Shown in pieces: positions 1 through 64,000 of a DNA stretch of 64,000 bases. A model generated the notes under the pieces. The model did no database searches and had not been told where the DNA came from. It worked only from the letters and a program-made list of their open reading frames with translations. A program made the position numbers and the translations under genes. The stretch's first letter is position 1. Each line of letters starts with the position of its first letter. The DNA lies in the NCBI GenBank assembly GCA_014435945.1, contig GCA_014435945.1_4088.1; one strand, written 5' to 3'. This DNA is from a phage.

Positions 1-11
1 AGCACTTTGAG

Positions 12-221
12 GTGCAATGCTTAAATGAAGGAATGAATCGTTTAGTACAAATTTACATGAAATCATTTATAGGTGTTGACACCGCACGTCTACCAGTATA
101 TAATTACTTCATTGAAAGCGAAGAAGGTGAATCACTTCGTGATTATGGTGAAAGATTTAATAATAAAGTTTTCACTGCAATCGCAAACGAGATTCATTAC
201 TATAAACCGTATGTAATTTAA
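12..221 (+). CDS. hypothetical protein (GTG start; frame is open to the window edge, so possibly 5'-truncated)
   Basis: ORF track; no in-frame stop between position 3 and 12. Confidence 0.35.
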   Translation: MQCLNEGMNRLVQIYMKSFIGVDTARLPVYNYFIESEEGESLRDYGERFNNKVFTAIANEIHYYKPYVI

Positions 222-235
222 TTAGAGGATATATC

Positions 236-418
236 ATGCAAATCATCATTCTTATCGTAGGTATCATTCTTGGTGTATATGGTCACTCCTGGATGAACGA
301 GAAGTTTCCTAATACCCGTCCTGAGTATTGCAGTACTAATGTATTCCAGAATAGTGATAAACCAAAGGATAGTATTGGTAAGAAACTGGACAAAGTACTT
401 GACGTAATCAACGAATAA
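236..418 (+). CDS. hypothetical small protein with N-terminal hydrophobic segment
   Basis: ORF track; GAGG-like SD upstream; co-oriented compact gene run. Confidence 0.45.
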   Translation: MQIIILIVGIILGVYGHSWMNEKFPNTRPEYCSTNVFQNSDKPKDSIGKKLDKVLDVINE

Positions 419-427
419 GGGTAAAGT

Positions 428-628
428 ATGTTTAAATCAAATTCGAATGTTGGTAAGAAGGTTCAATTACTTGAGGATGTATCCACCTTGAGTGGAATTT
501 TCCCAAGAGGTCACATCATGACTATTATTGCCGAAACATCCCGTGGGTGGGATTTAGAAGATGCTGACGGTAATCGCATCCTTGAGGCTGGATTCTATGG
601 TCATCGTGAATATAAAATCATTGATTAA
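428..628 (+). CDS. hypothetical protein
   Basis: ORF track; SD-like AAGGG upstream. Confidence 0.45.
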   Translation: MFKSNSNVGKKVQLLEDVSTLSGIFPRGHIMTIIAETSRGWDLEDADGNRILEAGFYGHREYKIID

Positions 629-637
629 GGATGTAAC

Positions 638-721
638 ATGACTTTAGAGATTATCTTTGGTATTGTTAGCTTAGTCATCTGTGTGGGTTGGTTTGGGTAT
701 CTGATGATTTTTGGTGATTAA
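638..721 (+). CDS. putative 27-aa hydrophobic peptide (MTLEIIFGIVSLVICVGWFGYLMIFGD)
   Basis: Read manually; AAGGA upstream; below ORF-track cutoff. Confidence 0.25.
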   Translation: MTLEIIFGIVSLVICVGWFGYLMIFGD

Positions 722-724
722 TAC

Positions 725-755
725 TTGACATAAGATATCAGTACTGTATAATGTT
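725..755 (+). promoter_or_regulatory. sigma70-like promoter TTGACA-N17-TATAAT (spacer contains AGTACTG)
   Basis: ttgacataagatatcagtactgtataat seen directly. Confidence 0.55.
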
Positions 756-845
756 TATATCAAAGGGAATGCAGTGAAAGGAAAGACAGCATAATCGTAC
801 TCGTCACTGCGTTCCCGCCCTTTTAAATTAAATGAGGAATTAACT

Positions 846-1154
846 ATGTTTCAAACTAACACTCAAGGTTTTGTAATCATCGATTTGAACCAAAACAGCG
901 GTTATTGGATGAAACCTACTGACGCATGTATGCAGTTTGATTTTTTAGGTTACAGGATTAGTGTAAGTACTGGTGCTTCTGTACTGAGAGGTGGTTGTAT
1001 CGTTGAACATCTGGTAACTGATCCAGAAGGTCGTGAGTATGAAATCGCAGGTTCAGTACAAGATGCCATTATGTTTGTATGTCAGCGTGAAATGAATGGT
1101 TCGAATTCAAATGCACTGACTCATGCTCTTTCTCAAGAAGTGGAGGTTCGTTAA
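846..1154 (+). CDS. hypothetical protein
   Basis: ORF track; promoter and structured leader upstream. Confidence 0.5.
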   Translation: MFQTNTQGFVIIDLNQNSGYWMKPTDACMQFDFLGYRISVSTGASVLRGGCIVEHLVTDPEGREYEIAGSVQDAIMFVCQREMNGSNSNALTHALSQEVEVR

Positions 1155-1399
1155 TGAAATATATCGTAGCAGTACTCGTAGCATTTTTACTCACTGCATG
1201 TGATGCTTCAACCAAAGAACGCACAAGTGATTTTATTCTCCCGACTGAATTAAAAGAAGCCGGATGTAAGATTTATCGTATGCAAAAGGACGGTGCTGAC
1301 GTAACCTTGTATACAGTTTATTGTCCTAATGCAAATACAAGTACTGGATACACTAGCGGTAAAACACGAATCAACACTTCCGTAATTCATGGAGAATAA
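1154..1399 (+). CDS. putative lipoprotein (signal peptide with LTAC lipobox)
   Basis: N-terminus MKYIVAVLVAFLLTAC; start overlaps upstream stop. Confidence 0.5.
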   Translation: MKYIVAVLVAFLLTACDASTKERTSDFILPTELKEAGCKIYRMQKDGADVTLYTVYCPNANTSTGYTSGKTRINTSVIHGE

Positions 1400-1401
1400 C
1401 A

Positions 1402-1770
1402 ATGAGCCTTGATACAACACGTGTAGCAGGTGATTTAACTCGTCTGAATAATGAAGAATTTCTTGCTGAAATAAAGTACAAGCTTGAAAAACTGGCACGA
1501 AGTGCTGAAGTAATTGAAGTTGAAGGTCACTTACCAATGGACCAATTCCATACGTTCAACGAAGATATGGTTTATTATCCAAATGAAATTTGGATTGAGT
1601 GGGAGTCATGGACTAACAATGTTCTCCGAATCGAAGGGTATTGTGTGAATTATGAATCTGAACCTGGTGATGTTACAAAAACTCTCTCAATTTGGTGTAC
1701 AAAAACACATGAACTAGTTGAGGTGAATTTGAATTATATGAAGGGCTTCCGTTGGGGTGATGTTCAATGA
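1402..1770 (+). CDS. hypothetical protein
   Basis: ORF track. Confidence 0.5.
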   Translation: MSLDTTRVAGDLTRLNNEEFLAEIKYKLEKLARSAEVIEVEGHLPMDQFHTFNEDMVYYPNEIWIEWESWTNNVLRIEGYCVNYESEPGDVTKTLSIWCTKTHELVEVNLNYMKGFRWGDVQ

Positions 1771-2042
1771 TTAAAAAACTATTGACTGTGGTCTTTGTAT
1801 TCTGTACAATGTTTCTTACAGCATGTAATGATGACGGCAGGTTTAGTGCAAAAGACTTAGTTCGTCAGGATTGTACATTCACAGGTAAGTCTTTTATTAA
1901 CGAGTATGAAATATGTACACAATCAGGTCGTATCTGTGGTGGTTGGGAAAAACGTCAGGAGCGATTGTATGTATATGAATGCCCTGGACATCTCAACAAA
2001 GTACTAAGCACACACAAACTTGTTTATGATAAGGTTGAATAA
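1767..2042 (+). CDS. putative lipoprotein (LTAC lipobox)
   Basis: N-terminus MIKKLLTVVFVFCTMFLTAC; overlapping start/stop. Confidence 0.5.
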   Translation: MIKKLLTVVFVFCTMFLTACNDDGRFSAKDLVRQDCTFTGKSFINEYEICTQSGRICGGWEKRQERLYVYECPGHLNKVLSTHKLVYDKVE

Positions 2043-2400: not shown

Positions 2401-2408
2401 GAATTCCC

Positions 2409-7934: not shown

Positions 7935-8159
7935 ATGAAATATCTAGTACTAGTACTGCTATTCTTGAGTACTGTTGTATGTGCTAAACCAAAGTATCAT
8001 GTAGTGTGTATCAACGAGATGGAAGGATATACTGAAACATATAAGAACCATATTGTTGAAGTTGCAGCCCAAGGTTCCTATGGGACCATCATCTTCCTTA
8101 AGAACAATGTGATTGTTCAGTACAAAAAAGATTCAAATTGTAAAGTGACTAAAAATTGA
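7935..8159 (+). CDS. small secreted protein (signal peptide)
   Basis: N-terminus MKYLVLVLLFLSTVVCA. Confidence 0.5.
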   Translation: MKYLVLVLLFLSTVVCAKPKYHVVCINEMEGYTETYKNHIVEVAAQGSYGTIIFLKNNVIVQYKKDSNCKVTKN

Positions 8160-24622: not shown

Positions 24623-24641
24623 GCCAGTACATAGTACTGGC
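24623..24641. terminator. bidirectional terminator hairpin GCCAGTAC-ata-GTACTGGC
   Basis: Inverted repeat between convergent genes. Confidence 0.55.
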
Positions 24642-25784: not shown

Positions 25785-25856
25785 AATTCCCTCCTTTATT
25801 CATTATACTATATTTAATCAAAAAAGAAAAGCCAGTACTCAAGTACTGGCATTATT
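25785..25856 (-). promoter_or_regulatory. array intergenic cassette: hairpin terminator (25831-25850), T-run, TATAAT, AAGGAGG SD
   Basis: Near-identical sequence recurs between array genes. Confidence 0.65.
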
Positions 25857-30500: not shown

Positions 30501-30571
30501 ATTTCCCTCCTTTATTCATTATACTATATTTAATACAAATAAGAAAGCCAGTATCAAGTACTGGCCTATAT
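30501..30571 (-). promoter_or_regulatory. array intergenic cassette (hairpin 30546-30564, TATAAT, AAGGAGG)
   Basis: Seen directly. Confidence 0.65.
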
Positions 30572-31741: not shown

Positions 31742-31811
31742 ATTTCCTCCTTTATTCATTATACTATATTTAATCAAAAAGAAAAGCCAGTATCAAGTAC
31801 TGGCATTATTG
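31742..31811 (-). promoter_or_regulatory. array intergenic cassette (hairpin 31786-31804)
   Basis: Seen directly. Confidence 0.65.
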
Positions 31812-33002: not shown

Positions 33003-33073
33003 ATTTTCCTCCTTTATTCATTATACTATATTTAACCAAAAAGAAAAGCCAGTGCTCAAGTACTGGAGTAATG
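33003..33073 (-). promoter_or_regulatory. array intergenic cassette (hairpin 33049-33066)
   Basis: Seen directly. Confidence 0.65.
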
Positions 33074-34216: not shown

Positions 34217-34281
34217 AATTCCCTCCTTTATTCATTATACTATATTTAATACAAATAAGAATGCCAGTATCAAGTACTGGC
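34217..34281 (-). promoter_or_regulatory. array intergenic cassette; hairpin 34263-34281 overlaps last codons of upstream gene
   Basis: Seen directly. Confidence 0.6.
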
Positions 34282-35466
34282 ATTAATTGTTGGGAGTGGG
34301 AATTCTTTCATGACAGATGAACTACTTGCTGAAATATTATCAGGAGATTTCCCCGCGTAGTATAATTTATTATTAATGTACATATACAACGTTGCATCGT
34401 TCCCTGCTACAAGGGATTCACTTTTCTTAAAGTTAACACCAGCAGGTAAAATTGCTTCAACAAATGATCCTGAATCGCGTGTGGTATTATTTGCTAACTG
34501 ACCATTGTTATTATAACCAGTACTATAAATTTTACCTGAACTATAATATACAAGACCACGTGTACTAGTGTTTTCTATTCGAATGAATTCACTATCATCT
34601 GGGACTGTAGTTGATAGTACTGCGTTTAACCTATAAGCAGTTGATACATTATTATTGCCCAGTTGTCCATAACCTTGAAAACCTAGTGCATACATAGGAC
34701 ATGATTCTGGTGATGTTGGTGTTCCTTTTGTTATAATACCAATATAATTCGCACTACAAAAAATATCTACTGCTTCTACAACAGGTGTACCCTTATATTG
34801 AACCCAAGGGAATACATACGATTGTTGTCTGCCATCTGCCAAAGTACCAGAAGATGTTGTTCCTGTACGCCACATTGTATCATCAAGTTTAATAATCCAG
34901 TTAGCTGATGTAATTGATGAACAGAATTTTTTAACATTATCTACTACAAATGTAAATCTATTATAATATGATGCCGTGTTTATACCAAACTTAGCACCAG
35001 TATTATCACCTAACACATATAAACTATTATCAGTTCCTAAAATCACAGCATAATTATAACCTACGTATATCTCTTTAATTCTTGAAATTCCAAATTGTGT
35101 AAAATAGCTTGTACATTCAGTGAATGTTGTTACATTATTGGTGGTATTATTACCCAGCCAAGTATCCAAACCACTATAAAAGAATCTATCATCATTAGTG
35201 CGTATTAGACAAAAAGCGTTCATAGTACTGCACCAAAAATCTTTAACATTGCTATATATTTTTGTCCATTCAGTTACTTGATTAGTATGACCTAAACCAA
35301 AAATTCCACCATTCTGAAGACCCATAGCCCATACTGAACCATTTACATCAAGTAGCATTGTACATGTATATGAATAACCACCCGATGGGGTGACTAATTT
35401 AGTAAAATTTGGTACATATGGAATGACTACATTCCCGTACTTAACCATTCTTGCAAAAGGTAACAT
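34270..35466 (-). CDS. RCC1-like repeat protein, array member 8 (MLPFARMVKYGN)
   Basis: As above. Confidence 0.75.
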   Translation of the reverse strand: MLPFARMVKYGNVVIPYVPNFTKLVTPSGGYSYTCTMLLDVNGSVWAMGLQNGGIFGLGHTNQVTEWTKIYSNVKDFWCSTMNAFCLIRTNDDRFFYSGLDTWLGNNTTNNVTTFTECTSYFTQFGISRIKEIYVGYNYAVILGTDNSLYVLGDNTGAKFGINTASYYNRFTFVVDNVKKFCSSITSANWIIKLDDTMWRTGTTSSGTLADGRQQSYVFPWVQYKGTPVVEAVDIFCSANYIGIITKGTPTSPESCPMYALGFQGYGQLGNNNVSTAYRLNAVLSTTVPDDSEFIRIENTSTRGLVYYSSGKIYSTGYNNNGQLANNTTRDSGSFVEAILPAGVNFKKSESLVAGNDATLYMYINNKLYYAGKSPDNISASSSSVMKEFPLPTINAST

Positions 35467-35537
35467 ATTTCCCTCCTTTATTCATTATACTATATTTAAT
35501 TCAAAAAGAAAAGCCAGTATCAAGTACTGGCATTATG
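35467..35537 (-). promoter_or_regulatory. array intergenic cassette (hairpin 35513-35531)
   Basis: Seen directly. Confidence 0.65.
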
Positions 35538-37803: not shown

Positions 37804-37863
37804 ATAATAATTATAATGTATTTACAAAAAAATACCAGTACGTATTTCAGTACTGGTATAATG
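37804..37863 (-). promoter_or_regulatory. array intergenic cassette variant (hairpin ACCAGTAC..GTACTGGT, TATAAT, GGAG)
   Basis: Seen directly. Confidence 0.55.
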
Positions 37864-39045: not shown

Positions 39046-39118
39046 AATAAAATCTCCGTAATTAAATTATATAGTATTTACAAAAAATACCAGTACATAT
39101 TTCAGTACTGACCTATTA
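39046..39118 (-). promoter_or_regulatory. array intergenic cassette variant
   Basis: Seen directly. Confidence 0.55.
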
Positions 39119-41443: not shown

Positions 41444-41513
41444 ATTTCCCTCCTTTATTCATTATACTATATTTAATCAAAAATAAATGCCAGTACACAG
41501 TACTGGCATAATA
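41444..41513 (-). promoter_or_regulatory. array intergenic cassette (hairpin 41489-41507)
   Basis: Seen directly. Confidence 0.65.
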
Positions 41514-42692: not shown

Positions 42693-42764
42693 ATTTCCCT
42701 CCTTTATTCATTATACTATATTTAATCAAAAATAAAAGCCAGTACTCTGTACTGGCATATTAAT
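42693..42764 (-). promoter_or_regulatory. array intergenic cassette (hairpin 42738-42756)
   Basis: Seen directly. Confidence 0.65.
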
Positions 42765-44015: not shown

Positions 44016-44243
44016 ATGACAACTACACTTAAGTACTACCTCAATACTCTAAATGAACTAGAGTACGCGAAGTTTCTCGCGGATAGTTCGTGGCTAATTG
44101 AGCTAAAAACACATAACAGTACTGGATGTAACCTTATGCTGAACAATGCACTTGATACCCTTGTAGTGAGTATTTTACACAGCAACATCTGCGGGGATAG
44201 CAATAAACAATTATCAAAAATCTTAGTACTGGTAGCTCTATGA
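44016..44243 (+). CDS. mini-protein family S member
   Basis: ORF track; SD AAGGAG. Confidence 0.5.
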   Translation: MTTTLKYYLNTLNELEYAKFLADSSWLIELKTHNSTGCNLMLNNALDTLVVSILHSNICGDSNKQLSKILVLVAL

Positions 44244-44452
44244 ACACTATGAACATTGAACAGTACTACATTGATGCACTACCAACAAAAGGTCTACGAG
44301 AAAGCCTACTGTATACACAAAATAATTATATAAACCTCAAACATTGTCCTAAACTCTTGAACTCGTACAGGAATAATAAAATAAGAAATGCTGTACAAGG
44401 GGTAGAAAGTATGCAATACTATTACATCCTAACCCTTTTAATCGAACACTAA
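44240..44452 (+). CDS. mini-protein family S member (N-terminal ..QYYIDALP, Tyr/Leu-rich C-terminus)
   Basis: ORF track; tandem paralogs. Confidence 0.5.
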   Translation: MNTMNIEQYYIDALPTKGLRESLLYTQNNYINLKHCPKLLNSYRNNKIRNAVQGVESMQYYYILTLLIEH

Positions 44453-44453
44453 T

Positions 44454-44639
44454 ATGTATAAAGAATTCTACTGTAGTAAGCTGCACAAACAATACAGAGA
44501 TTCATTTCCCAATGAACCTATGGATATGAATAGTCCCTTTTATAAATTTGACTTCAGACTGGAGACACGTTATGCAATAGAACATCAATTTCCTGAAACT
44601 AAGTACTTATCTATCATGAACCTCATCTTTAAGTTCTAA
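44454..44639 (+). CDS. mini-protein family S member
   Basis: ORF track. Confidence 0.45.
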   Translation: MYKEFYCSKLHKQYRDSFPNEPMDMNSPFYKFDFRLETRYAIEHQFPETKYLSIMNLIFKF

Positions 44640-44650
44640 AAGAGTACTAT

Positions 44651-44863
44651 ATGAAAACTATGAACATACACCAGTACTACTTAGATATTCTCCCTAAAGA
44701 TGTACAGTTCATCCTTAAACAAGAATACAGTACTTTAAAAAACCTTAAAAGAACCGCACCGAATGTATTAATCCTGCACCAAGAAAATGTAGTTGATAAT
44801 ATTCTACAAGGTGTACCAGGGACCGAGTACTTTAACATAATAAGGCTAATTACATTACCATGA
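44651..44863 (+). CDS. mini-protein family S member
   Basis: ORF track. Confidence 0.5.
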   Translation: MKTMNIHQYYLDILPKDVQFILKQEYSTLKNLKRTAPNVLILHQENVVDNILQGVPGTEYFNIIRLITLP

Positions 44864-45045
44864 ATCATATATTATACTATTACCAAAATCTATCCGACAG
44901 GGACAAGTACACCCACAACTCCAATGTATGGTACTACAAACGCGGTAGTATAAGAGACAAACAACATTACTTCTGTATTGCTATAAAAGAAGCACTAACA
45001 ACTAAGTACACGTACAGAGCAGTACTGAAACTTATTGATATGTAA
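44860..45045 (+). CDS. mini-protein family S member
   Basis: ORF track. Confidence 0.5.
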   Translation: MNHILYYYQNLSDRDKYTHNSNVWYYKRGSIRDKQHYFCIAIKEALTTKYTYRAVLKLIDM

Positions 45046-45055
45046 AGAGAATACT

Positions 45056-45238
45056 ATGAGCATTGAATTGTACTTAAGTAAATTACAGCCTGGCGATAGA
45101 TTCATCTACAATAAGTTCGAATTCAACTACAAGAACGGGAGCAACAAATATCGTCGAGGATACCTATATACAAGCACAAGAGATGCACAAAACGAAAAGT
45201 ACACATACAGAGAAGTACTTAAACTAATCTCTATTTGA
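45056..45238 (+). CDS. mini-protein family S member (C-terminus YTYREVLKLISI)
   Basis: ATG after upstream stop. Confidence 0.5.
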   Translation: MSIELYLSKLQPGDRFIYNKFEFNYKNGSNKYRRGYLYTSTRDAQNEKYTYREVLKLISI

Positions 45239-45246
45239 GGTAATAT

Positions 45247-45432
45247 ATGAACACATTTGAGTACTATACAAATAAACTATCTATGCCTGAAAGATCTCAT
45301 CTCTATGTGTGGAGAAATGCGTATAAAAGCGGCAATAAACTTATACAAAGAAATTCCCTTACAGTGTGTACAAATTTAATTAAAGCAGAGTACCGCACAT
45401 ATATTGAAGTACTCAAACTGATAGCAATATAA
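45247..45432 (+). CDS. mini-protein family S member
   Basis: ORF track. Confidence 0.5.
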   Translation: MNTFEYYTNKLSMPERSHLYVWRNAYKSGNKLIQRNSLTVCTNLIKAEYRTYIEVLKLIAI

Positions 45433-45440
45433 GGTACTCT

Positions 45441-45620
45441 ATGCAAGAATTCTATATCTATAACCTCCAGCACAAAGATAGATACAACTATAATAAATTC
45501 CAAAGGTACTACACAGTCGGGAACAAAAGAGATAAAAAACGTTATCTACTCTCGTGTACAGTAGAAGCACAAAACGAAAAGTACAGGTACAGAGAAGTAC
45601 TTAAACTAATCTCAATCTAA
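45441..45620 (+). CDS. mini-protein family S member (59 aa, missed by 60-aa cutoff)
   Basis: Read manually; MQEFYIYNL...YRYREVLKLISI. Confidence 0.5.
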   Translation: MQEFYIYNLQHKDRYNYNKFQRYYTVGNKRDKKRYLLSCTVEAQNEKYRYREVLKLISI

Positions 45621-45627
45621 GGTAGAC

Positions 45628-45816
45628 ATGAACACTTTTGAGTACTACTTCAATAAACTAAACCACATAGAACAAAGTATGCACAACTCATTTATTCAGC
45701 ACCATCAATCATCTGCATCTGGAATTAAAAATATATCGATTGAGATTATAACTACCCGTGTACTGTCATCTGAACGTTATATGTATATTGATGTACTGAA
45801 ACTCATCTCTATGTAA
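45628..45816 (+). CDS. mini-protein family S member
   Basis: ORF track. Confidence 0.5.
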   Translation: MNTFEYYFNKLNHIEQSMHNSFIQHHQSSASGIKNISIEIITTRVLSSERYMYIDVLKLISM

Positions 45817-45824
45817 GGAATAAT

Positions 45825-46004
45825 ATGCAAGAATACTATATAGAACACATAAACATTAAAGACCGTTTCATGTACGACACCTTCGTGAAGTACTACAACC
45901 TGGCAACTAACAGTACTAAAAATATTAATCTCAATAGCTGCATTCATCACGCACTAACAAAAGATAATCCCTTCAGGGAAATCCTCGCTCTCGCATCTGT
46001 ATAA
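45825..46004 (+). CDS. mini-protein family S member (59 aa, missed by cutoff)
   Basis: Read manually; MQEYYIEHI... Confidence 0.45.
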   Translation: MQEYYIEHINIKDRFMYDTFVKYYNLATNSTKNINLNSCIHHALTKDNPFREILALASV

Positions 46005-46014
46005 AGGAAACCAA

Positions 46015-46674
46015 ATGAAACTTAATGCACACAGCAAACAATACCTTAAGCACTTTAAGTACCTCAACAGTATTCAAGCAGAATCTTTTACATCTGCATA
46101 TACGTATCACCCAAATGTACTAAAGAAACGAAATAAAAAGAAAAAATCCAGAAATGTTCTCGTATCTAAGAACCTCAAATCGTACTTGAAGAAAAATAAT
46201 ATAGCTCTTGCTTTTATTAATATCTATAATACTGATTTAAAAGTATTGAGTACTAATACCAGCACAAAAGCACTAAAGAATGCATCTATCTATATACACA
46301 TGGATAATATCCCGTGTACTATAATTCTATCTTTCGGGAATGTATACTTCTTCGGGAATTGTAATAGCACCCATGATATCAGTACTGCACAATTCCAAAT
46401 CGGAGATATGTACTGCATGGGTTCAGAAAAAATACACGATAACATGCACTTCTTCCAAAAGCAACGTACTAACGAAACTGATACAGTACTGCAATTCCTC
46501 AAAGAACTACAAAACAAAGAATTAACACCAGAAGAAGAATTCATGTACAGTACTGTAATCGATAATCCAGAACTCTATAAAAACGCGTACAAACTAACAA
46601 AACATGTACAGGAACTTATCAGTACTGATAAGAAATTTCATAACCTCATTACGTATATTACAAACTATGTATAA
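46015..46674 (+). CDS. hypothetical protein (219 aa) interrupting the mini-gene array
   Basis: ORF track. Confidence 0.5.
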   Translation: MKLNAHSKQYLKHFKYLNSIQAESFTSAYTYHPNVLKKRNKKKKSRNVLVSKNLKSYLKKNNIALAFINIYNTDLKVLSTNTSTKALKNASIYIHMDNIPCTIILSFGNVYFFGNCNSTHDISTAQFQIGDMYCMGSEKIHDNMHFFQKQRTNETDTVLQFLKELQNKELTPEEEFMYSTVIDNPELYKNAYKLTKHVQELISTDKKFHNLITYITNYV

Positions 46675-46849
46675 AGAATACTACAAAGATAAAATCCCAA
46701 TGCATCTACAACACCATATACCAAACGTTGCATTGGGTATCAAAGATCACACAAAGATAATGTTCCAACAATGTACTAAGTACACGCTCATATACGATGA
46801 TAATCCATATATGCTGTACTACGTAGTAATGCTAACATTCAGGTACTAA
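46667..46849 (+). CDS. mini-protein family S member (MYKEYYKDKIP...)
   Basis: ATG overlapping upstream stop. Confidence 0.5.
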   Translation: MYKEYYKDKIPMHLQHHIPNVALGIKDHTKIMFQQCTKYTLIYDDNPYMLYYVVMLTFRY

Positions 46850-46850
46850 T

Positions 46851-47030
46851 ATGCACAAATATAAAGAATTCTACCTCTCGTACCTTAATTCCGATATAGT
46901 AACATCCAATACATTCAGTACTAAAATTATCTATAATGAAGTAATGAAAGAATGTATTAAAGGTGCTATTAACCCTAAAGATACGTATGACTTGTACTAT
47001 GCAGTACTAACCCTTGTTTTCACGAAATAA
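46851..47030 (+). CDS. mini-protein family S member (59 aa, missed by cutoff)
   Basis: Read manually; MHKYKEFYLSYL... Confidence 0.5.
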   Translation: MHKYKEFYLSYLNSDIVTSNTFSTKIIYNEVMKECIKGAINPKDTYDLYYAVLTLVFTK

Positions 47031-47038
47031 CACATAAT

Positions 47039-47230
47039 ATGAATAACCACAAAGAATACTACATAGAGAAACTCCCAATGTATCTACAACACCTTGTACC
47101 AACAGAACCATTGCGTATAGAAAAAGACTACGAAAAAGACTATTTCATTAAGTGCACTAAATCCTCGATAGATATTGAGGACTATAATAGAGTACTGTAT
47201 CACATCCTTTTACTAATATATAAGTACTAA
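47039..47230 (+). CDS. mini-protein family S member (MNNHKEYYIEKLP...)
   Basis: ORF track. Confidence 0.55.
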   Translation: MNNHKEYYIEKLPMYLQHLVPTEPLRIEKDYEKDYFIKCTKSSIDIEDYNRVLYHILLLIYKY

Positions 47231-47240
47231 AGAGAACAAT

Positions 47241-47429
47241 ATGAATAACCACAAAGAATACTACACACAATTTCTCCCCAGCATTTTTGAACACTACGCC
47301 AGATATAAAGTCCCCCTGGATAACGATTTGGCAGTACTGGGATTCAATAATTGCATAGAACGCAGTATAGAAAATAGTAGTAGCTATGACCAATTATATA
47401 ACACTATCCTACTTATATTCAGGTACTAA
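47241..47429 (+). CDS. mini-protein family S member
   Basis: ORF track. Confidence 0.55.
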   Translation: MNNHKEYYTQFLPSIFEHYARYKVPLDNDLAVLGFNNCIERSIENSSSYDQLYNTILLIFRY

Positions 47430-47430
47430 T

Positions 47431-47619
47431 ATGCATAAAGAATACTACACAAAATATTTCCCAATGTACCTCAGTACTAATCTATTAGATAAACCTCGCG
47501 GTATCAATGCACAAAACGATAAAGTGTACTTTACTATGTGCACTAAAGCATGTATACTAGATTTTGATAGCTATCATCGAGTACTATACCACACTCTGTA
47601 CCTCGCGTTCGTGTACTAA
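47431..47619 (+). CDS. mini-protein family S member (MHKEYYTKYFP...)
   Basis: ATG immediately after upstream stop. Confidence 0.55.
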   Translation: MHKEYYTKYFPMYLSTNLLDKPRGINAQNDKVYFTMCTKACILDFDSYHRVLYHTLYLAFVY

Positions 47620-47629
47620 AGAGGCCAAT

Positions 47630-47836
47630 ATGAACGAACAGAAAGAATTTTACACCAAATACCTCAGCAACGAAGAACAATTGTTTCTAAGGAGTGTATC
47701 ACCTTTAAGTTTAGATACACCACACGCCAGACATTGCTTTAATAATTGTATACGTAGTACTCTAGAAGCTTTAGAAAACAATAACAAAAAGATTCAGTAC
47801 TCAGGTGTAATAGGACTAATATTCTTCTATGAATAA
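47630..47836 (+). CDS. mini-protein family S member (MNEQKEFYTKYL...)
   Basis: Internal ATG of track ORF. Confidence 0.55.
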   Translation: MNEQKEFYTKYLSNEEQLFLRSVSPLSLDTPHARHCFNNCIRSTLEALENNNKKIQYSGVIGLIFFYE

Positions 47837-48008
47837 CTATAAAGAATTCTACATAAGCCATCTGGATATAAACTCCCAAATGCTTATACCACTAAAACCA
47901 ATAGATTTCAAGGATAAGAAAAATACCCAACAATTTATTGACCATACTGACTGTGCGGTGAACCAAAATTATATGTACTACATTCTCGCCCTAATATACA
48001 GGTACTAA
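47829..48008 (+). CDS. mini-protein family S member (59 aa, missed by cutoff)
   Basis: Read manually; MNNYKEFYISHL... Confidence 0.5.
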   Translation: MNNYKEFYISHLDINSQMLIPLKPIDFKDKKNTQQFIDHTDCAVNQNYMYYILALIYRY

Positions 48009-48009
48009 T

Positions 48010-48195
48010 ATGCATAGAGAATACTACACACAATTTGTTAAAGGGAACTACAAACACGCCGTCCCCGTAAACCCCTTAAATTCTAATGACCCAAGTACTA
48101 TATTCTTGTTCCATGACGCAATACGTACAGTACTCAATACTAAAGATGAACAGGTGCAGTACGTATTCTTACTTTTACTTATATACAGACACTAA
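48010..48195 (+). CDS. mini-protein family S member
   Basis: ORF track. Confidence 0.55.
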   Translation: MHREYYTQFVKGNYKHAVPVNPLNSNDPSTIFLFHDAIRTVLNTKDEQVQYVFLLLLIYRH

Positions 48196-48200
48196 CTAAT

Positions 48201-48410
48201 ATGAATAATGAACATAAAGAATTCTATTCCAAACACCTCAGCCAATCAGAACAAATGTTTCTAAGGACTACACCACCTTTAAGTACTAATACATATTTCG
48301 GCAGAGTATGCTACAATAATTGTATTCAAATGACTTTAAACGCAAACGCCAATGGTAACAGTACTAACCTGTACTCAGGCATCATAGGTATACTATTTCT
48401 ATATGAATAA
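48201..48410 (+). CDS. mini-protein family S member
   Basis: ORF track. Confidence 0.55.
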   Translation: MNNEHKEFYSKHLSQSEQMFLRTTPPLSTNTYFGRVCYNNCIQMTLNANANGNSTNLYSGIIGILFLYE

Positions 48411-48585
48411 AGAACATAAAGACTTCTATATAAGAAAACTAACATTCGTCCCCGTAAGAATATACAAAGAATGCGACCCAAGATTATACCTATGGCACTT
48501 CAATGAGTGCATAAAAGATTCTATATACCCTAAGAACTATAAAGAACAATTGATCTCAGTACTAACACTAGTACTATCATATTAA
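48403..48585 (+). CDS. mini-protein family S member
   Basis: ORF track; ATGA overlap. Confidence 0.55.
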   Translation: MNKEHKDFYIRKLTFVPVRIYKECDPRLYLWHFNECIKDSIYPKNYKEQLISVLTLVLSY

Positions 48586-48598
48586 TAGAGATAATACT

Positions 48599-48781
48599 AT
48601 GTATAAAGACTTCTATATAAGTAAACTAAAAGAAAACGAACAAGCATGGGTTAACAATTTAATCCCCTTGGCAATGACTCAATACGAATTTAATATGTGT
48701 ACAAAGATTGTTTTAACTACTAATGATATCTCTAATACGTACTACTTCCTAGTAAGAGTACTATATGGTACTTTGAAATAA
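48599..48781 (+). CDS. mini-protein family S member
   Basis: ORF track. Confidence 0.5.
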   Translation: MYKDFYISKLKENEQAWVNNLIPLAMTQYEFNMCTKIVLTTNDISNTYYFLVRVLYGTLK

Positions 48782-48792
48782 TAAGGTATACT

Positions 48793-48999
48793 ATGCAGAA
48801 CATAAAAAATTATAAAGAGTACTATATAAGTAAACTACCACCGACTGACCAAGCATGGATTAGATCTATAATAGTACTTGCATTTAATAGATATGCATTT
48901 AACAGATGTACCGAGATTGCTATAGACCCTTATAATATTAAAGAGAATGTACAGCATAATCAGTACTACTATATGTTAATGCTTATATATAGGAAGTAA
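48793..48999 (+). CDS. mini-protein family S member
   Basis: ORF track. Confidence 0.55.
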   Translation: MQNIKNYKEYYISKLPPTDQAWIRSIIVLAFNRYAFNRCTEIAIDPYNIKENVQHNQYYYMLMLIYRK

Positions 49000-49124: not shown

Positions 49125-49410
49125 AATCATATGTAGTCATAAGTAATCATATATAAACATTTAAGTAATCATTTATAATCACAGTAGTGATCAGTAGTGA
49201 GTACTAGAGTGTAATAGAGTGTAATAGAGTACAGGAATGTGCACGTTTAATCAAGAACGTAGCAGTACTGCCCCAAAAGTATTCAGTACTGAAGGTGTCG
49301 ATATGCCACTAAGTAGGCAGAGGAAGTCTGCCGTACTTTGTAGTTTCCAAGCTCCTTTTCCATTTTGCAAATTACATCAAATGTAATCAAAAGTAATCAC
49401 GCAATGATTA
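49125..49410. repeat. cluster of short direct repeats (GTAATCA about 6 times; AGTGTAATAGAGT twice)
   Basis: Read directly in ORF-free region. Confidence 0.5.
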
Positions 49411-49448
49411 GTACTGAATTATTACTTTCACCTTAATTACAATTACCC

Positions 49449-49468
49449 TTTTACCCTTCGGGGTAAAA
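49449..49468 (+). other. perfect hairpin TTTTACCC-TTCG-GGGTAAAA (UUCG tetraloop) with no T-run
   Basis: 8-bp inverted repeat. Confidence 0.5.
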
Positions 49469-49686
49469 TTCCATTACCCCTTGAGGCTCCAGCAAAAAGT
49501 TGGTTAGTACTCCATCCTAAATCTCGATCCTAAAAATTTTGGAGTACCTATGAAATAAAAGTTGGATCTTCGAAAGTTGAAATTTACGTTGGGACGTTTA
49601 TGATTTGTGGGATATAATGATGTTTGTAGTCGGGTAGTTCTCAAGAATATCAGTACTGAATGGTGAAAGAAAGTTATTGACATTAT

Positions 49687-49716
49687 GATTCAGTACTGTA
49701 TAATGTTCTACATAGA
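49687..49716 (+). promoter_or_regulatory. orphan sigma70-like promoter (TTGACA-N17-TATAAT) with no ORF for over 1 kb
   Basis: ttgacattatgattcagtactgtataat. Confidence 0.45.
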
Positions 49717-50029
49717 GAGATGAGTTGCTGCGAACAATTCATTTACTCTACCTCCTGTCGTGAGACAGTACAGAAAAGATAGTTCCTCCTATTGGTGGTG
49801 CATCTTTTTGAACCTCATATGAAAATCGTAATAACAGTACTGATATTAACAGAATGGTATTAGTACTGATTTTAATCTAAAGCATTATGCCACCAGCTTG
49901 TGCTGGTGGATTCCCTCTAACAGTATTCAGTACTACATGATGGTCTTCATCCTCCTAGGGTAACATAGTGAGGGCTATGATGGCAGTACTGAATACTCCT
50001 TTCACAAGATAGATCTATGGTATAGTACT

Positions 50030-50225
50030 GACGGATTTTGGGCGTAGTTACCCTGGGTGGATTTTGGACGTAGATATGTCTAGCCCTCCAGAAGTCTGGA
50101 AGTAAAGATGGCTATCCATCTAGACGGCTAAACGGCTAGATTTCTAGATGGCTGTATGGCTAGACGTTTGGACGGCTAAACGGCTAGATGGTTACACGTC
50201 TGGATGTATAGACGGCTAAATCAAA
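50030..50225. repeat. iteron-like direct repeats: GACGGCTAAACGGCTAGAT twice (50123-50141, 50171-50189), partial copy at 50211, and GGATTTTGG(G/A)CGTAG twice
   Basis: Read directly. Confidence 0.6.
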
Positions 50226-50916
50226 ATTTTTATTTTGTTTTTTCCAATAGTTCCCCTACCGCGTGGGGATAGTTTCCCCGCAGTATCTGGAGTTAGATTT
50301 TTCTGAATCTGGAATCATTATCCCCGTTTTAGCCTGGTATGTCAACCGCCTGGATGAATATTTTTAAAAAATAATCTAGTACTGAATTTTGGGCGTAACT
50401 ATGCACCCGGTGGGCTTGAGTCTTTCTCGACTTGATGGAACTATTATACAGTACTGGAAAAATAAAGCAATACCCTGGAAGCAAAAAAGTTTTAATTAAT
50501 TTGCTTGCTATCCTGGGCCGGACTATGGTACTATATTTCAGTACTGAGAAAGTGCGTTTACCTGCTAGGGTGCGGGAGTGTATCCTTTTTAAATTTACTG
50601 AATTTTGGGCGTAATTCCGCACCCCCAGGGGTATCCGCTTTCTCGCGTCTATGTAGTAATTATACGCTTTTTCGGTGCTGAGTCAATAGCTAAAAACAAA
50701 ATAATTGAAAATAATTTAACGCGTTTAAACGGCCCGTAAAGCCCTGGTTAGCTGGTGGCGGTGCAAATGTATAGCTTAGGTGTATTAATGCGTTAGAATG
50801 CGATTGAGGACGTTTTACGGGGTATAGTACTGATTCAGTACTGAAAGATTGTTCTCCCTGGATTGTTCCAGTACTCCTATATAGAAAGAAAACTATTTTA
50901 AAAGTATTTGTAGAAA

Positions 50917-50950
50917 GTACTTGCAAAGTATTGGGAAAGGTGTAGAATGT
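50917..50950 (+). promoter_or_regulatory. sigma70-like promoter (TTGCAA-N16-TAGAAT) followed by leader hairpin
   Basis: Seen directly. Confidence 0.5.
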
Positions 50951-51375: not shown

Positions 51376-51440
51376 AAAGTACTTGCAAAGTAAGTTTAAA
51401 GGCGTATAATACTTTACATCAGGTGGGGAATAGTTCCCCA
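51376..51440 (+). promoter_or_regulatory. right-region promoter unit: AGTACTTGCAA(-35)-N16-TATAAT then leader hairpin GTGGGGAA-tag-TTCCCCAC
   Basis: Same unit recurs before most genes from 51 to 64 kb. Confidence 0.6.
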
Positions 51441-51461: not shown

Positions 51462-51701
51462 ATGGCTAAATCAAAAATGTTCTTAGGTCACAAAAACAAA
51501 ACTCAATGGAATGTAAGCCTTTGGATTAATAACGACGAATCATTATACCGGTTGGCCCAGGACTTTATTGCCGCTAACACTAATCGTAATGATGCGGCCC
51601 GTCATATGATGCTATTTTTAGAACAGACTGGACAAGATAAAACGCCGGACGGCTTTAAGTATAGCACTACTGCGATCCGTGCGGCGATGGTTGGAATGTA
51701 A
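51462..51701 (+). CDS. hypothetical protein; paralog of 53854..54093
   Basis: Shared GHKNKTQWNVSLWINN..ESLYRLAQ...TPDGFKYSTTAIRAAMVGM. Confidence 0.55.
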   Translation: MAKSKMFLGHKNKTQWNVSLWINNDESLYRLAQDFIAANTNRNDAARHMMLFLEQTGQDKTPDGFKYSTTAIRAAMVGM

Positions 51702-53409: not shown

Positions 53410-53502
53410 TTTAAAAAGTACTTGCAAACTAAGTTTAAAGGCGTATAATACTTTATATCGAGGCGGGGAGTGGTTCCCCGCTCATACTAAAAGGGTAACA
53501 AA

Positions 53503-53853: not shown

Positions 53854-54093
53854 ATGGCTAGTACTAAAACTTACAACGGGCACAAAAACAAAACTCATTG
53901 GAATGTTTCCTTATGGATTAATAACGGTGAGTCATTGTATCGGCTTGCTCAAAGTTGCATCGCACAAAGTAGAACTAAAGATATTGCTGCGGAATGTATG
54001 TACCGCAGATTAAAAGCCAACGGTACTACTACAACGCCGGACGGATTCAAGTATAGCACTACGGCGATCCGTGCTGCAATGGTTGGAATGTAA
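53854..54093 (+). CDS. hypothetical protein; paralog of 51462..51701
   Basis: Shared motifs; identical promoter unit. Confidence 0.55.
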   Translation: MASTKTYNGHKNKTHWNVSLWINNGESLYRLAQSCIAQSRTKDIAAECMYRRLKANGTTTTPDGFKYSTTAIRAAMVGM

Positions 54094-54412: not shown

Positions 54413-54498
54413 AAAAGTACTTGCAATTAGTTTTCAGTACTGTATAATGGTTTACATCAAAGGGAGAAATGGTTCTCCCTGGTAATGAGGAAAATAAA

Positions 54499-60521: not shown

Positions 60522-60616
60522 TATAAAAAATAGTTTGACAATAGATTATAGTACTGTATAATAGTTTACATCAAGGGGAGAGATGATTCTCCCCACTAAC
60601 AGAGAGAGAAAACAAA

Positions 60617-61968: not shown

Positions 61969-62226
61969 ATGGCTGTAGGATTTGCGAAGGACGGGGCCGA
62001 ACAAGACGAGATTAACGCAGTGATTCAGGCCGCTGTAAACCACGCTAGAAAGCAAATTAACGCACAAAGAGAATCACTGGTACATTGCCTCGACTGCGGC
62101 GATAAAATTCCTGAGAATCGACGCCAGGCCGTTATAGGGTGCATGTATTGTATTACTTGCCAGGAGGATCATGATAGTACTTTTAAAAGAGATCCGCGTA
62201 ATTGTTGGCATAGATCTATGAGATAA
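61969..62226 (+). CDS. TraR/DksA-family C4 zinc-finger protein
   Basis: CLDCGDKIPENRRQAVIGCMYCITCQ matches the CxxC-N17-CxxC DksA/TraR signature. Confidence 0.7.
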   Translation: MAVGFAKDGAEQDEINAVIQAAVNHARKQINAQRESLVHCLDCGDKIPENRRQAVIGCMYCITCQEDHDSTFKRDPRNCWHRSMR

Positions 62227-62290
62227 AAAGTAATTGACAGTACTGAAAGATAGTGTATAATGTTTTATATCTTAACTGAGGATAGAAATC

Positions 62291-62647
62291 ATGGGAATAC
62301 AACATATCACGCGTACTACTGACAATGGCGAGATCACTGGTTATCAAGTACAGGGCAAAGTAGCACAATTGCAGTACTGGTTTGTTAAACGTGGAATCAT
62401 TGCACCGGATCTTGATTATGACCGTGTAGCGTTTATTGATTCTCTTTATGTTGATCCTGATAGTCGGGGCAATGGTGAAGGTAACGAATTAATGAATGCC
62501 TTTATCGATGCCGCCGATGATTCAGATTGTATCATCTTAGAATGCGATACGGGAGAAGATAACGCCTTTAATCTTAAAGAATGGTACGAAGGTTTCGGAT
62601 TCGAGGTATTGATAGATAGTGAATATCCTATCATGATTTTATCATAG
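62291..62647 (+). CDS. possible small GNAT-like acetyltransferase
   Basis: Weak motif-A-like segment VDPDSRGNGEGNELMNAF. Confidence 0.35.
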   Translation: MGIQHITRTTDNGEITGYQVQGKVAQLQYWFVKRGIIAPDLDYDRVAFIDSLYVDPDSRGNGEGNELMNAFIDAADDSDCIILECDTGEDNAFNLKEWYEGFGFEVLIDSEYPIMILS

Positions 62648-62725
62648 TACTTGCATTTAGTTTTCAGTACTGTTATAGTACTTGCATCAAGGGGAAACAT
62701 CTTCCCCTACTAAGAGGAAATAAAA

Positions 62726-62914
62726 ATGGAAAACTTATCAAGTATTTTAGTACAAGATGATTTCGGTAATCCTGGAAGTGCTATCATTGTTCGGGGTAAT
62801 AAAGCAACGTTTGTTATTGCTGGTGGACCCGTACAGCGTAGCATTAAAAATAATGCTGTTACCATTAATAATGTACGCTATCGCTTAGATAAAGAATTAA
62901 TTCATAAACTGTAA
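62726..62914 (+). CDS. hypothetical protein
   Basis: ORF track. Confidence 0.5.
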   Translation: MENLSSILVQDDFGNPGSAIIVRGNKATFVIAGGPVQRSIKNNAVTINNVRYRLDKELIHKL

Positions 62915-62999
62915 AAAAGTACTGGACAATAGATTATAGTACTGTATAATAAGTTACATGAAGGGGAGAAATGATTCTCCCCACTAAGAGGAAAGAAAA

Positions 63000-63212
63000 A
63001 TGCAAGGTCAACTAATCGTTCGTAAATGGTCTGATACTAACGCTAAACCGTGGGATGTACAATACATCGCCCCCAATGGTGAATCACGTTATCAGCCAGG
63101 TGTAACGCATAGTACTGAGCAATTCGCCGCCGCTCACCGTGAACGCCTGTTACAATCAATGCAGCAAGGTTTCGGTGAAAAATTCATTCAGGATCATTGG
63201 CTGAAAGATTAA
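63000..63212 (+). CDS. hypothetical protein
   Basis: ORF track. Confidence 0.5.
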   Translation: MQGQLIVRKWSDTNAKPWDVQYIAPNGESRYQPGVTHSTEQFAAAHRERLLQSMQQGFGEKFIQDHWLKD

Positions 63213-63298
63213 AAAGTACTTGCACTGTACTGAATAAAGTGTATAATGTTTTATATCGGAAGGGGAATAGTTCCCCTCCGAACAAAGAGGAAAGTATA

Positions 63299-63472
63299 AT
63301 GGTCCAGGTAGAATTAACAGTACTGAAAGATCTGTTTTATCGGATTGGTACTACTGGCGAATATCCGAAGGGTGATAATGCAAAACTTTACGTATCACTC
63401 GACTTATGGCAACGCGAACAATTAGCAACGGCCTGGCGTAAAGGCAAAGCAGATAGCGAGGTGAAAGCATGA
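63299..63472 (+). CDS. hypothetical 57-aa protein
   Basis: ATG after SD AGAGGAAAG. Confidence 0.45.
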   Translation: MVQVELTVLKDLFYRIGTTGEYPKGDNAKLYVSLDLWQREQLATAWRKGKADSEVKA

Positions 63473-63618
63473 AAGAATTCTTATTTGAAGTAGTGTTTCA
63501 AGGTGTCGGTAGTAACCAACTGATTCGCTCAAGTGGTTATAATGTTAACCAGGCATGGAATAACATTAAACAAATGTACCCGAACGCTATCACATATCGC
63601 AACCCGAAAGAAGTTTAA
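63469..63618 (+). CDS. putative 49-aa protein
   Basis: Read manually; ATGA overlap with upstream stop. Confidence 0.35.
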   Translation: MKEFLFEVVFQGVGSNQLIRSSGYNVNQAWNNIKQMYPNAITYRNPKEV

Positions 63619-63634
63619 AAATAATTGAAAAAGG

Positions 63635-63668
63635 GATTGACTCCGGTCAGTCCCTTTGCTATTATATA
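63635..63668 (+). promoter_or_regulatory. PeSL-like terminator-promoter cassette
   Basis: gggattgactccggtcagtccctttgctattat. Confidence 0.6.
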
Positions 63669-63796
63669 CGCATAGAAACAAATCAGCCCACAGGGTGCAT
63701 AAATGTATCTATTGTTTGCTGGTGGCTAGTACTGAAAACTATTTTTAAAAAGTACTTGCATTGTACTTAGAATAAAGTATAATGTTTTACATCAGG

Positions 63797-63885
63797 ACGG
63801 GGAACGAAACAAGTAACCCCGTTAAGTAGTCCAGGAGTAAGACATACGAAAAACTCCCCTGATAAAATAGTTTGACAATAGAAAG
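63797..63885 (+). ncRNA. candidate structured RNA element between tandem promoters (copy 2)
   Basis: Near-identical to 52640-52735. Confidence 0.35.
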
Positions 63886-63931
63886 TAAAAGAGTATAATA
63901 CTTACATCAACCACTGATAAGGAAACATAAA

Positions 63932-64000
63932 ATGCGGATTCTACTGACAGCTAACGAAATCGAACAAGTACTGACTACTAACCTGGAAGACTGGAAACGT
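63932..64000 (+). CDS. hypothetical protein, 3'-truncated by window end
   Basis: ATG after SD AAGGAAA; open to the edge. Confidence 0.35.
   Translation, partial: MRILLTANEIEQVLTTNLEDWKR

Follow-up and report, generated by a model that had tools for sequence, protein, structure and literature searches.

In the 64,000-nucleotide stretch of phage DNA analysed here (GenBank assembly GCA_014435945.1, contig GCA_014435945.1_4088.1; henceforth the window), the palindrome AGTACT is present in 266 copies, which corresponds to an approximately 12-fold excess over chance. We tentatively propose that AGTACT, with CAGTACTG as its optimal form, is the recognition word of a dimeric, two-fold-symmetric DNA-binding protein encoded by RaK2-like enterobacterial jumbo phages, an interpretation read from sequence to which we assign slightly less than an even chance. 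The exact palindrome with its coupled halves, the symmetric flanks, the selection at synonymous sites, the maintained density, the confinement to one clade and the two registers in promoters are best accommodated by recognition of double-stranded DNA by a symmetric, clade-specific protein.

By megablast, the window matches Asteriusvirus-type jumbo coliphages of approximately 350-385 kb (PBECO4, 121Q, fEgEco12, slurp01 and others), and our working gene map comprises 131 genes with 84.6% of the sequence coding. The genome of fEgEco12 has an experimentally determined direct terminal repeat of 20,993 bp (PMC13070987). Mapped via locus L001 and ignoring indels, the start of this repeat would fall at approximately 48.9-49.0 kb of the window, and we therefore read the segment from 49 to 64 kb as most likely the early, terminally repeated region.

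Abundance and exact form of the word

The initial annotation had described AGTACT as pervasive and had called for a Markov count, which bears out the claim. Dinucleotide-preserving shuffles of the window yielded 23.8 +/- 5.4 copies (maximum 38, z ~45), and Markov models of order 0, 1 and 2 predicted 21.7, 23.0 and 51.1 copies, respectively. The maximal-order model raises the expectation to 224, because the 5-mers AGTAC and GTACT are enriched as well. AGTACT is the top-ranked hexamer in the window; every other 6-bp palindrome reaches at most approximately three times its expectation, and the 18 variants with one mismatch are represented by 3-62 copies each.

Among the 640 GTAC cores, 266 carry both the 5′ A and the 3′ T, 119 only the A, 107 only the T and 148 neither. 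The resulting odds ratio of 3.1 indicates that the complete palindrome is the preferred unit, and the coupling of the outer bases argues for recognition of the whole symmetric site rather than of two independent strand-specific 5-mers. The symmetry extends into the flanks: when the coding sites are oriented with their genes, C is found at -1 in 80 of 180 and G at +1 in 74 of 180 sites, and further outwards the positions -4/-3 are weakly T-rich and +3/+4 weakly A-rich (TTnC..GnAA). The best form CAGTACTG is present in 58 copies as compared with 0.7 expected.

Against an expectation of 0.34/kb, 180 sites are fully coding (3.3/kb), 83 are fully intergenic (8.4/kb) and three cross a boundary. Repeated cassettes, in which at least 70% of the flanks are shared with another site, account for 54 copies; without them, 212 sites in unique contexts remain, still approximately ten times the expectation. 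Chance, base composition and codon usage are ruled out as the cause by the dinucleotide shuffles, by the Markov models of order 0-2 and by the synonymous-codon shuffles described below. Likewise, the 212 unique-context sites, together with 41 sites in a paralogous family that occupy 40 different alignment columns, rule out the duplication of cassettes or paralogs as the sole cause. The earlier suggestion of a recombination hotspot linked to cassette shuffling gains no specific support: the cassettes are indeed repeated, yet 180 sites lie inside genes, 212 stand in unique contexts, and in a sample of core genes of phage 121Q all but one of 76 sites are coding.

Selection on the word within genes

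The coding sites make use of all three frames (91/32/57), which rules out a peptide motif as the cause. When synonymous codons were permuted within each gene, 59.4 +/- 6.5 sites (maximum 78) were obtained as compared with the 180 observed, and this expectation is itself raised, since Ser, Thr and Val are most often encoded by AGT, ACT and GTA, respectively. The dipeptide Ser-Thr is written AGT-ACT 91 times, whereas codon usage predicts 31, and the dipeptides themselves are inflated, with 192 Ser-Thr (108 expected) and 151 Val-Leu (105 expected). The word consequently shapes codon choice and protein sequence alike. As an example, three sites are found within 28 bp at 7946-7973 (+), where they specify the L-V-L-V-L and L-S-T stretches of a signal peptide (CTAGTACTAGTACTG...TTGAGTACT). 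We dropped the idea of an autoregulatory operator at this triple site, as the stretch simply codes for the signal peptide.

In an alignment with slurp01 (19.3 kb, 86.7% identical), 50 of 61 aligned AGTACT sites are intact, whereas only 52% of all hexamers are retained. Hexamers located within 150 bp of each site predict that 35.6 sites would be kept (P ~1e-5). Moreover, third-codon positions differ in 10.6% of cases inside the sites and in 23.4% elsewhere (P ~0.001). The AGTACT sites are thus under purifying selection at synonymous positions. At the same time sites are gained and lost, with 11 sites present only in the window and 15 only in slurp01, and the alternative states are varied. Over longer times the positions are not kept at all: in 17 RCC1-like paralogs (22763-43913, minus strand), the 41 intragenic sites fall into 40 different alignment columns. 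It is the density of the word that is maintained over long times, and not its positions.

Distribution among relatives, other phages and the host

The excess is shared by the relatives of the phage. The core replication and structural genes of 121Q contain 76 AGTACT per 50 kb (17 expected), 75 of which are coding as compared with 25.9 +/- 4.3 in synonymous shuffles. In slurp01 we counted 76 copies per 23.6 kb, in fEgEco12 82 per 11 kb, in Klebsiella phage RaK2 119 per 50 kb, in Cronobacter phage GAP32 253 per 50 kb and in Yersinia phage fHe-Yen9-04 158 per 30 kb. In every sampled relative with an excess of AGTACT, CAGTACTG is likewise enriched. The preference for a pyrimidine before and a purine after the word (Y..R) over the reverse arrangement (R..Y) amounts to 140:32 in Asteriusvirus, 62:11 in RaK2, 83:60 in GAP32 and 55:41 in the Yersinia phage.

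The comparison with non-self DNA was made on small samples, none of which showed an excess: 30 kb of Pseudomonas phage PA5oct contain two copies (10 expected), 29 kb of T4 contain six (5.5 expected) and 50 kb of E. coli K-12 contain three (11.6 expected). With approximately 4 sites/kb in the window and approximately 0.06/kb in the E. coli sample, the word is some 70 times more frequent in phage DNA than in the host DNA sampled. The trait hence belongs to the enterobacterial RaK2-like jumbo clade, that is, Asteriusvirus, Alcyoneusvirus, Mimasvirus and Eneladusvirus. The excess is present across this clade and absent from T4 and the E. coli sample; the host does not impose it on its phages in general. 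In addition, the T4 counts and pattern scans of IMG/VR rule out that the trait is shared by coliphages at large or by T4-type promoters. Within the clade, the density differs five-fold between early and core regions.

Both fEgEco12 and RaK2 carry their own tRNA-Ser and tRNA-Thr genes (PMC13070987, PMC3622015), which may help to translate the many AGT and ACT codons that result from the AGTACT excess. The papers on RaK2, CBB, PA5oct, fEgEco12 and Sharanji and the literature searched for the sequence string do not mention the word; the GAP32 paper was not covered. As far as searched, the excess is unreported, although it may have been noticed before.

Two registers in early promoters

Relative to the genes, AGTACT sites accumulate between 40 and 90 bp ahead of start codons and in the first 40 bp past stop codons, while they are depleted around the ribosome-binding site. 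The positional enrichment relative to start codons for which the initial annotation had asked is thus present. The same is true of the three contexts that it had named, directly before the -10 hexamer, fused to the -35 hexamer and in the stems of terminators, all of which exist.

We analysed the 32 best plus-strand matches to sigma-70-type promoters between 49 and 64 kb, setting the first base of the -10 hexamer to -12. AGTACT is found between -75 and +5 in 23 of these 32 promoters, and its first base is located almost always either at -39 (12 promoters) or at -19/-20 (13 promoters). The two registers give rise to two promoter forms. The first, TTGACA-N9-AGTACT-G-TATAAT, places the word directly before the -10 hexamer; in the second, AAAAGTAC-TTGCAA-N16-TATAAT, it is fused to the -35 hexamer, N16 being the spacer length as scored in the promoter scan. 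Several promoters bear both sites at a distance of 20-22 bp, which corresponds to two helical turns.

The first form is exemplified by a perfect sigma-70-type promoter (12/12 matches, TTGACA-N16-TATAAT) at 49677-49704 (+), in which AGTACT at 49692-49697 occupies the -19 register and abuts G-TATAAT; an additional copy is located nearby at 49652. At 51378-51410 (+), a single-site promoter represents the AAAAGTAC-TTGCAA class, its site being joined directly to the -35 hexamer. The dual-site promoter AAAAGTACTTGCAA-N9-CAGTACTGTATAAT at 54416-54448 (+) carries sites at 54416 (-39) and 54436 (-19), 20 bp apart. The same layout recurs at 55201/55221, 59165/59185 and 62918/62938, and in a shifted version at 61114/61136, 57369/57391 and 57661/57683.

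The same two registers and the same pairing at 20-21 bp are found in GAP32, there inside annotated promoters, and in the Yersinia phage. In IMG/VR, nearly all matches to the AGTACT-bearing promoter patterns fall on contigs of 345-366 kb, RaK2 and 121Q among them. Only one of the 76 sites in the 121Q core sample is intergenic; the promoter association is therefore a feature of early sigma-70 promoters alone, whereas the coding excess extends over the whole genome.

The word does not appear to be simply an extended -10 (TGn) element, with TG at -15/-14, since the scores for this element differ between two forms of promoter: in AGTACT-G-TATAAT the TG directly abuts TATAAT and TGn is scored 'no', whereas in AGTACT-GG-CATAAT the flank supplies a TG in the TGn position and the score is 'yes'. 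We also considered the alternative -35 motif 'TGAAACG' of CBB and GAP32 as an extension of AGTACTGAAA, and found no such promoters in the window.

Between 51 and 64 kb, where a strong promoter precedes each of a series of small genes, repeated cassettes consist of the promoter, followed by TTTACATC, a G/C-rich 5′ hairpin (GGGGAGA..TCTCCCC) and a small open reading frame (ORF); examples are located at 51383-51440, 53422-53480 and 60535-60600. Correspondingly, TATAAT-gtTTTACATCgaGGGG..CCCC recurs ahead of small ORFs throughout this segment.

A clade-specific symmetric protein as the proposed reader of the word

The initial annotation had taken AGTACT for a recognition motif of a phage or host factor. 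The symmetric flanks, the coupled bases, the selection, the conservation in the clade and the fixed registers are in line with a recognition motif. We favour a factor of the phage over one of the host, because T4 grows on the same host without an excess, because the promoter pattern is essentially confined to the clade in IMG/VR and because the host protein SlmA requires the opposite flanks.

If such a protein exists, the high density of sites would allow it to cover or tag the DNA of the phage selectively, much as a nucleoid-associated protein specific to the phage would do. The sites at -39 to -34 and -19 to -14 of early sigma-70 promoters adjoin or overlap the -35 and -10 contacts, and they are approximately two turns apart on the same face of the helix. 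Their occupancy would therefore be expected to switch early promoters, most likely off as the protein accumulates. The occurrence of AGTACT in terminator stems and in the hairpin of a candidate small RNA (see below) would then be a by-product of an abundant self-complementary word.

Several observations weigh against this proposal. Scans of the larger window proteins (20 of them with Pfam, 10 with PHROGs) did not reveal a DNA-binding domain; the 20 proteins yielded only a DksA/TraR zinc finger, a GNAT acetyltransferase, an AAA ATPase and a treble-clef domain. These scans thus yielded no candidate for the reader, whose gene, should there be one, may lie beyond the window. Moreover, a palindrome of 6-8 bp is short for a helix-turn-helix operator and more typical of Type II restriction/modification enzymes, and tight binding at approximately 1.5-3 sites/kb within genes could hinder both transcription and replication. 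Compared with Asteriusvirus and RaK2, the samples of GAP32 and the Yersinia phage show a less pronounced Y..R flank preference. Finally, the promoter copies reside partly in duplicated cassettes, and the register counts within the window are therefore not independent, a concern that is mitigated by their recurrence across genera.

A related view, which we regard as possible rather than probable, holds that AGTACT/CAGTACTG is a sequence-encoded 'self' mark by which a phage protein tells phage from host DNA, directs transcription, protection or nuclease sparing, and times the shut-off of early promoters. RaK2-like jumbo phages are related to T4 but lack its modified bases, and loading of the genome with a word could here substitute for base modification. 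The mark would then be a phage counterpart of uptake sequences or of Chi.

If a protein indeed reads the word, it would represent a new global regulator or chromatin-like factor of widespread 350-kb phages that are considered for therapy, and the virus would mark its own genome by the density of a word rather than by base modification. It would also bear on the old question of how the very strong early promoters of T4-type phages are shut off, the mechanism of which is still unknown (PMC2988021). Apart from its function, AGTACT offers a simple signature to recognise the clade in metagenomes, and its excess explains part of the unusual codon and dipeptide usage of these phages (AGT, ACT, GTA). 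Unless the sites are modified, ScaI and RsaI are further predicted to cut these genomes with unusual frequency.

Alternative explanations

Six-base palindromes are typical targets of Type II enzymes, and ScaI recognises AGTACT. The word might hence be the target of a phage-encoded DNA methyltransferase and serve as an epigenetic mark, for instance to tell apart injected, replicated and host DNA or to modulate early promoters. The clade encodes several such enzymes: gp194 and gp447 in RaK2, three in CBB, and in Sharanji an N6A methyltransferase, a second one and a HaeIII-like C5 enzyme. In addition, methylation sites embedded in promoters can time transcription, as in Dam-regulated promoters. 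We nevertheless consider this explanation unlikely. Methyltransferase targets are not normally enriched 12-fold, and the bisulfite data for RaK2 indicate methylation of the CpG type, whereas AGTACT does not contain CpG. Sites lost between the window and slurp01 lack the signature of 5-methylcytosine deamination, as C-to-T products (AGTATT/AATACT) do not dominate in this small sample, and in the window AGTATT and AATACT are not depleted (52 and 49 copies, respectively). The link to restriction or modification that the initial annotation had put forward is possible, without direct support.

A molecular drive could account for the word in the absence of a reader. Biased repair or gene conversion in the course of the recombination-rich replication of T4-type phages, by a very-short-patch (VSP)-like correction or a nuclease that spares the word, would turn near-cognates into AGTACT. 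Such a process would be pervasive in coding sequence in spite of its cost for the proteins, which is apparent from the inflated Ser-Thr dipeptides; it would let positions turn over at constant density, and it would mimic conservation as well. However, the transition neighbours of the word lie above the composition expectation (AGTATT 52, AATACT 49, AGCACT 24, GGTACT 26, AGTACC 36), unlike in the case of VSP repair in E. coli. Furthermore, neither the two exact promoter registers kept across genera nor the five-fold difference in density between early and core regions is explained, so that we regard a drive as improbable.

A host protein of the Enterobacterales, such as the nucleoid occlusion factor SlmA or another regulator, might read the word and be exploited or titrated by the phage. 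This would agree with the excess in phages of Escherichia, Klebsiella, Cronobacter and Yersinia and its absence from the Pseudomonas relative PA5oct, and with the paucity of the word in the host itself. Moreover, the SlmA site GTGAGTACTCAC has an AGTACT core. Its flanks, however, are opposite to those of the phage word. In line with this, the window contains no full SlmA site, and the half-sites number four and five as compared with 7.6 expected. Given in addition that T4 shares the host without showing the enrichment and that the AGTACT-bearing promoter is restricted to the clade in IMG/VR, a host reader appears very unlikely.

We are equally sceptical of a function at the RNA level, where the self-complementary AGUACU would pair any two copies and thereby generate terminator or stabiliser hairpins or pervasive mRNA structure. 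It is true that the word forms the stems of approximately a dozen terminators and of a 14-pair hairpin at 49835-49868, and that symmetric flanks would lengthen RNA duplexes too. The promoter copies, however, precede the transcription start and keep fixed distances from the -35 and -10 hexamers. In addition, close pairs are not in excess (64 gaps of at most 60 nt as compared with approximately 58 under a Poisson expectation), and the majority of the 180 coding sites lack a partner close by.

The least probable explanation is an unusually long primase or replisome site, in which the palindrome would serve both strands in the frequent lagging-strand priming of a 350-kb genome: although the density of 1.5-4 sites/kb is comparable to the spacing of Okazaki fragments, although AGTACT contains the 5′-GT template on which the primases of T4 and T7 begin their primers with pppAC, and although the clade supplies a primase and a helicase of its own, known primases recognise single-stranded DNA over 3-5 nt and do not depend on a palindrome, and the coupling of the outer bases, the promoter registers and the higher density in the early region are not predicted.

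Terminator hairpins and the 49-51 kb stretch

Approximately a dozen terminator hairpins on the minus strand are located between the RCC1-like paralogs and take the form (G)CCAGTACT...TACTGG(C), followed by a T-run, or, written more fully, GCCAGTACT..(A/G)TACTGGC with the T-run. A representative, GCCAGTACTTGAGTACTGGC with its T-run, is found at 25831-25850 (-). Its sisters lie at 24623-24641, 30545-30567, 31786-31804, 33049-33066, 34260-34284, 35513-35531, 37832-37859, 39089-39112, 41487-41509 and 42738-42756.

The densest cluster of AGTACT, 19 sites at 49200-50921 (+), falls into the conserved, ORF-poor stretch at 49-51 kb near the inferred start of the direct terminal repeat. Approximately ten of the 19 sites read AGTACTGA(A/T/C/G), and many conform to (T/A)(C/T)AGTACTGA(A/T). 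The initial annotation had reported free-standing sites every 60-100 bp in this region; the accumulation was confirmed, with 19 sites in 2 kb, but their spacing is irregular and ranges from 11 to 354 bp. A search of the cluster for tRNAs and known RNA families did not find any.

The 14-pair hairpin at 49835-49868 (+), both arms of which are CAGTACTG, is followed by a T-rich tail and is likely to be the terminator of a transcript of approximately 165 nt originating from the 49677 promoter. The ORF-less segment 49677-49875 (+) that gives rise to this ~165-nt RNA is strongly structured, with a minimum free energy of -50.1, whereas shuffled sequences reach -31.5 +/- 3.8 (z = -4.9). We regard this RNA, which lies at the inferred boundary of the terminal repeat, as a candidate small RNA of the phage; Rfam returned no match.

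In the same stretch, approximately 14 tandem 8-bp units (A/T)(C/T)GGCTA(A/G) constitute an iteron-like array at 50108-50219. The 2-kb non-coding stretch that holds it is 88-95% conserved across Asteriusvirus. Possible roles of the array are those of an origin, of a packaging signal or of a signal that stops injection. In addition, four copies of G(G/A)ATTTTGG(G/A)CGTA are found at 50033-50665, two of which extend to units of approximately 70 nt starting with TACTGAATTTTGGGCGTAA (50380-50449 and 50596-50665).

The Chi sequence of E. coli, GCTGGTGG, is present in nine copies on the plus strand (4537, 15036, 49902, 50751, 56743, 61358, 61868, 62819 and 63718) and in one on the minus strand (49890), while approximately 0.2 copies per strand are expected. 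Seven of the nine plus-strand copies lie within 49.9-63.7 kb, and the pair at 49890/49902 forms a hairpin, CCACCAGC-TTGT-GCTGGTGG. The Chi copies may protect the genome end from RecBCD.

Genes of the window

The first 22.7 kb of the window (1-22.7 kb) carry small genes on the plus strand, followed by the tandem array of the 17 RCC1-like paralogs on the minus strand (22.7-43.9 kb). The latter are highly diverged, with a median amino-acid identity of 22%, and each has its own terminator; the label 'chromosome condensation' given to RCC1-like proteins in relatives rests on the repeat alone. Approximately 25 consecutive ORFs of 50-75 codons (roughly 60) occupy 44016-48999 (+). They include several small paralog families, for instance six members at 44860-46004, and many of them have in common a hydrophobic motif at the C-terminus, for example (V/I)LKLI(S/A)(I/M); no function is known for any of them.

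In the early region, a DksA/TraR-type C4 zinc-finger protein is encoded at 61969-62226 (+; Pfam E = 3.9e-9), which likely binds the secondary channel of RNA polymerase, and the GNAT acetyltransferase is encoded at 62291-62647 (+; E = 4e-9). Two paralogous early proteins of 79 aa are encoded at 51462-51701 and 53854-54093 (+). The former gene has nucleotide matches of 82-90% in many unrelated groups of coliphages (rV5-like, phi92-like, Phapecoctavirus and others), a spread that marks it as a promiscuous small early gene.

Comparison with known systems

The closest parallels to the genome-wide behaviour of AGTACT are the uptake signal sequences and DNA uptake sequences (USS/DUS), Chi and the FtsK-orienting polar sequences (KOPS). 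Like AGTACT, these are short words that occur far above chance in coding and non-coding DNA, in the present case at 3.3/kb and 8.4/kb, respectively, as compared with 0.34/kb expected. They are kept by selection or drive at a cost in codons or amino acids, their positions turn over while the density stays, and they tell self DNA from other DNA. The rarity of AGTACT in the small non-self samples (E. coli 3/50 kb, T4 6/29 kb, PA5oct 2/30 kb) conforms to this pattern. DUS, moreover, often form inverted pairs in terminators, as does AGTACT. On the other hand, AGTACT belongs to a phage and not to a cell, measures only 6-8 bp and is linked to no uptake or recombination machinery, and unlike Chi and KOPS it conveys no orientation, as it is palindromic.

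As a target of restriction, AGTACT is the same 6-bp palindrome as that of ScaI and would suit the symmetric enzymes of Type II. Such sites, however, are normally avoided in phage genomes, whereas AGTACT is 12-fold enriched, and no gene for an enzyme of matching specificity came to light.

The SlmA-binding sequence GTGAGTACTCAC resembles the phage word in its identical AGTACT core, and it is likewise a palindrome scattered over a chromosome, where a dimeric protein of the helix-turn-helix type binds it. For SlmA to bind, the three bases 5′ of AGTACT have to be G, T and a purine, mirrored on the 3′ side (PMC3020112). The phage word, in contrast, prefers a pyrimidine where SlmA requires the purine (Y..R 140, R..Y 32 in the window), and does not qualify as an SlmA site.

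The early promoters of T4-type phages and their promoter-early-stem-loop (PeSL) cassettes are alike in combining very strong sigma-70 promoters that have extra conserved positions with a 5′ stem-loop, repeated between small early ORFs. Judged by sequence layout only, the region at 51-64 kb, with its strong early promoters and stem-loops repeated between small ORFs, resembles such cassettes. The extra element is different here, being the exact palindrome AGTACT in two registers, whereas T4 has no excess of the word, and in contrast to the T4-type cassettes AGTACT is enriched in genes far from promoters, too.

With regard to the proposed mode of action, the nearest analogues would be TF1 of SPO1 and p6 of phi29, two histone-like phage proteins that bind throughout the phage genome and repress early promoters. 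By analogy, a reader of AGTACT would combine global binding of the phage genome with the switching of early promoters, for which selectivity between phage and host DNA would be essential. The DNA of fEgEco12 is cut normally by ten restriction enzymes (PMC13070987), so that its bases are not replaced wholesale. Whereas TF1 selects DNA containing hydroxymethyluracil and p6 reads bendability, selectivity in the RaK2-like jumbo phages would come from the sequence word itself.

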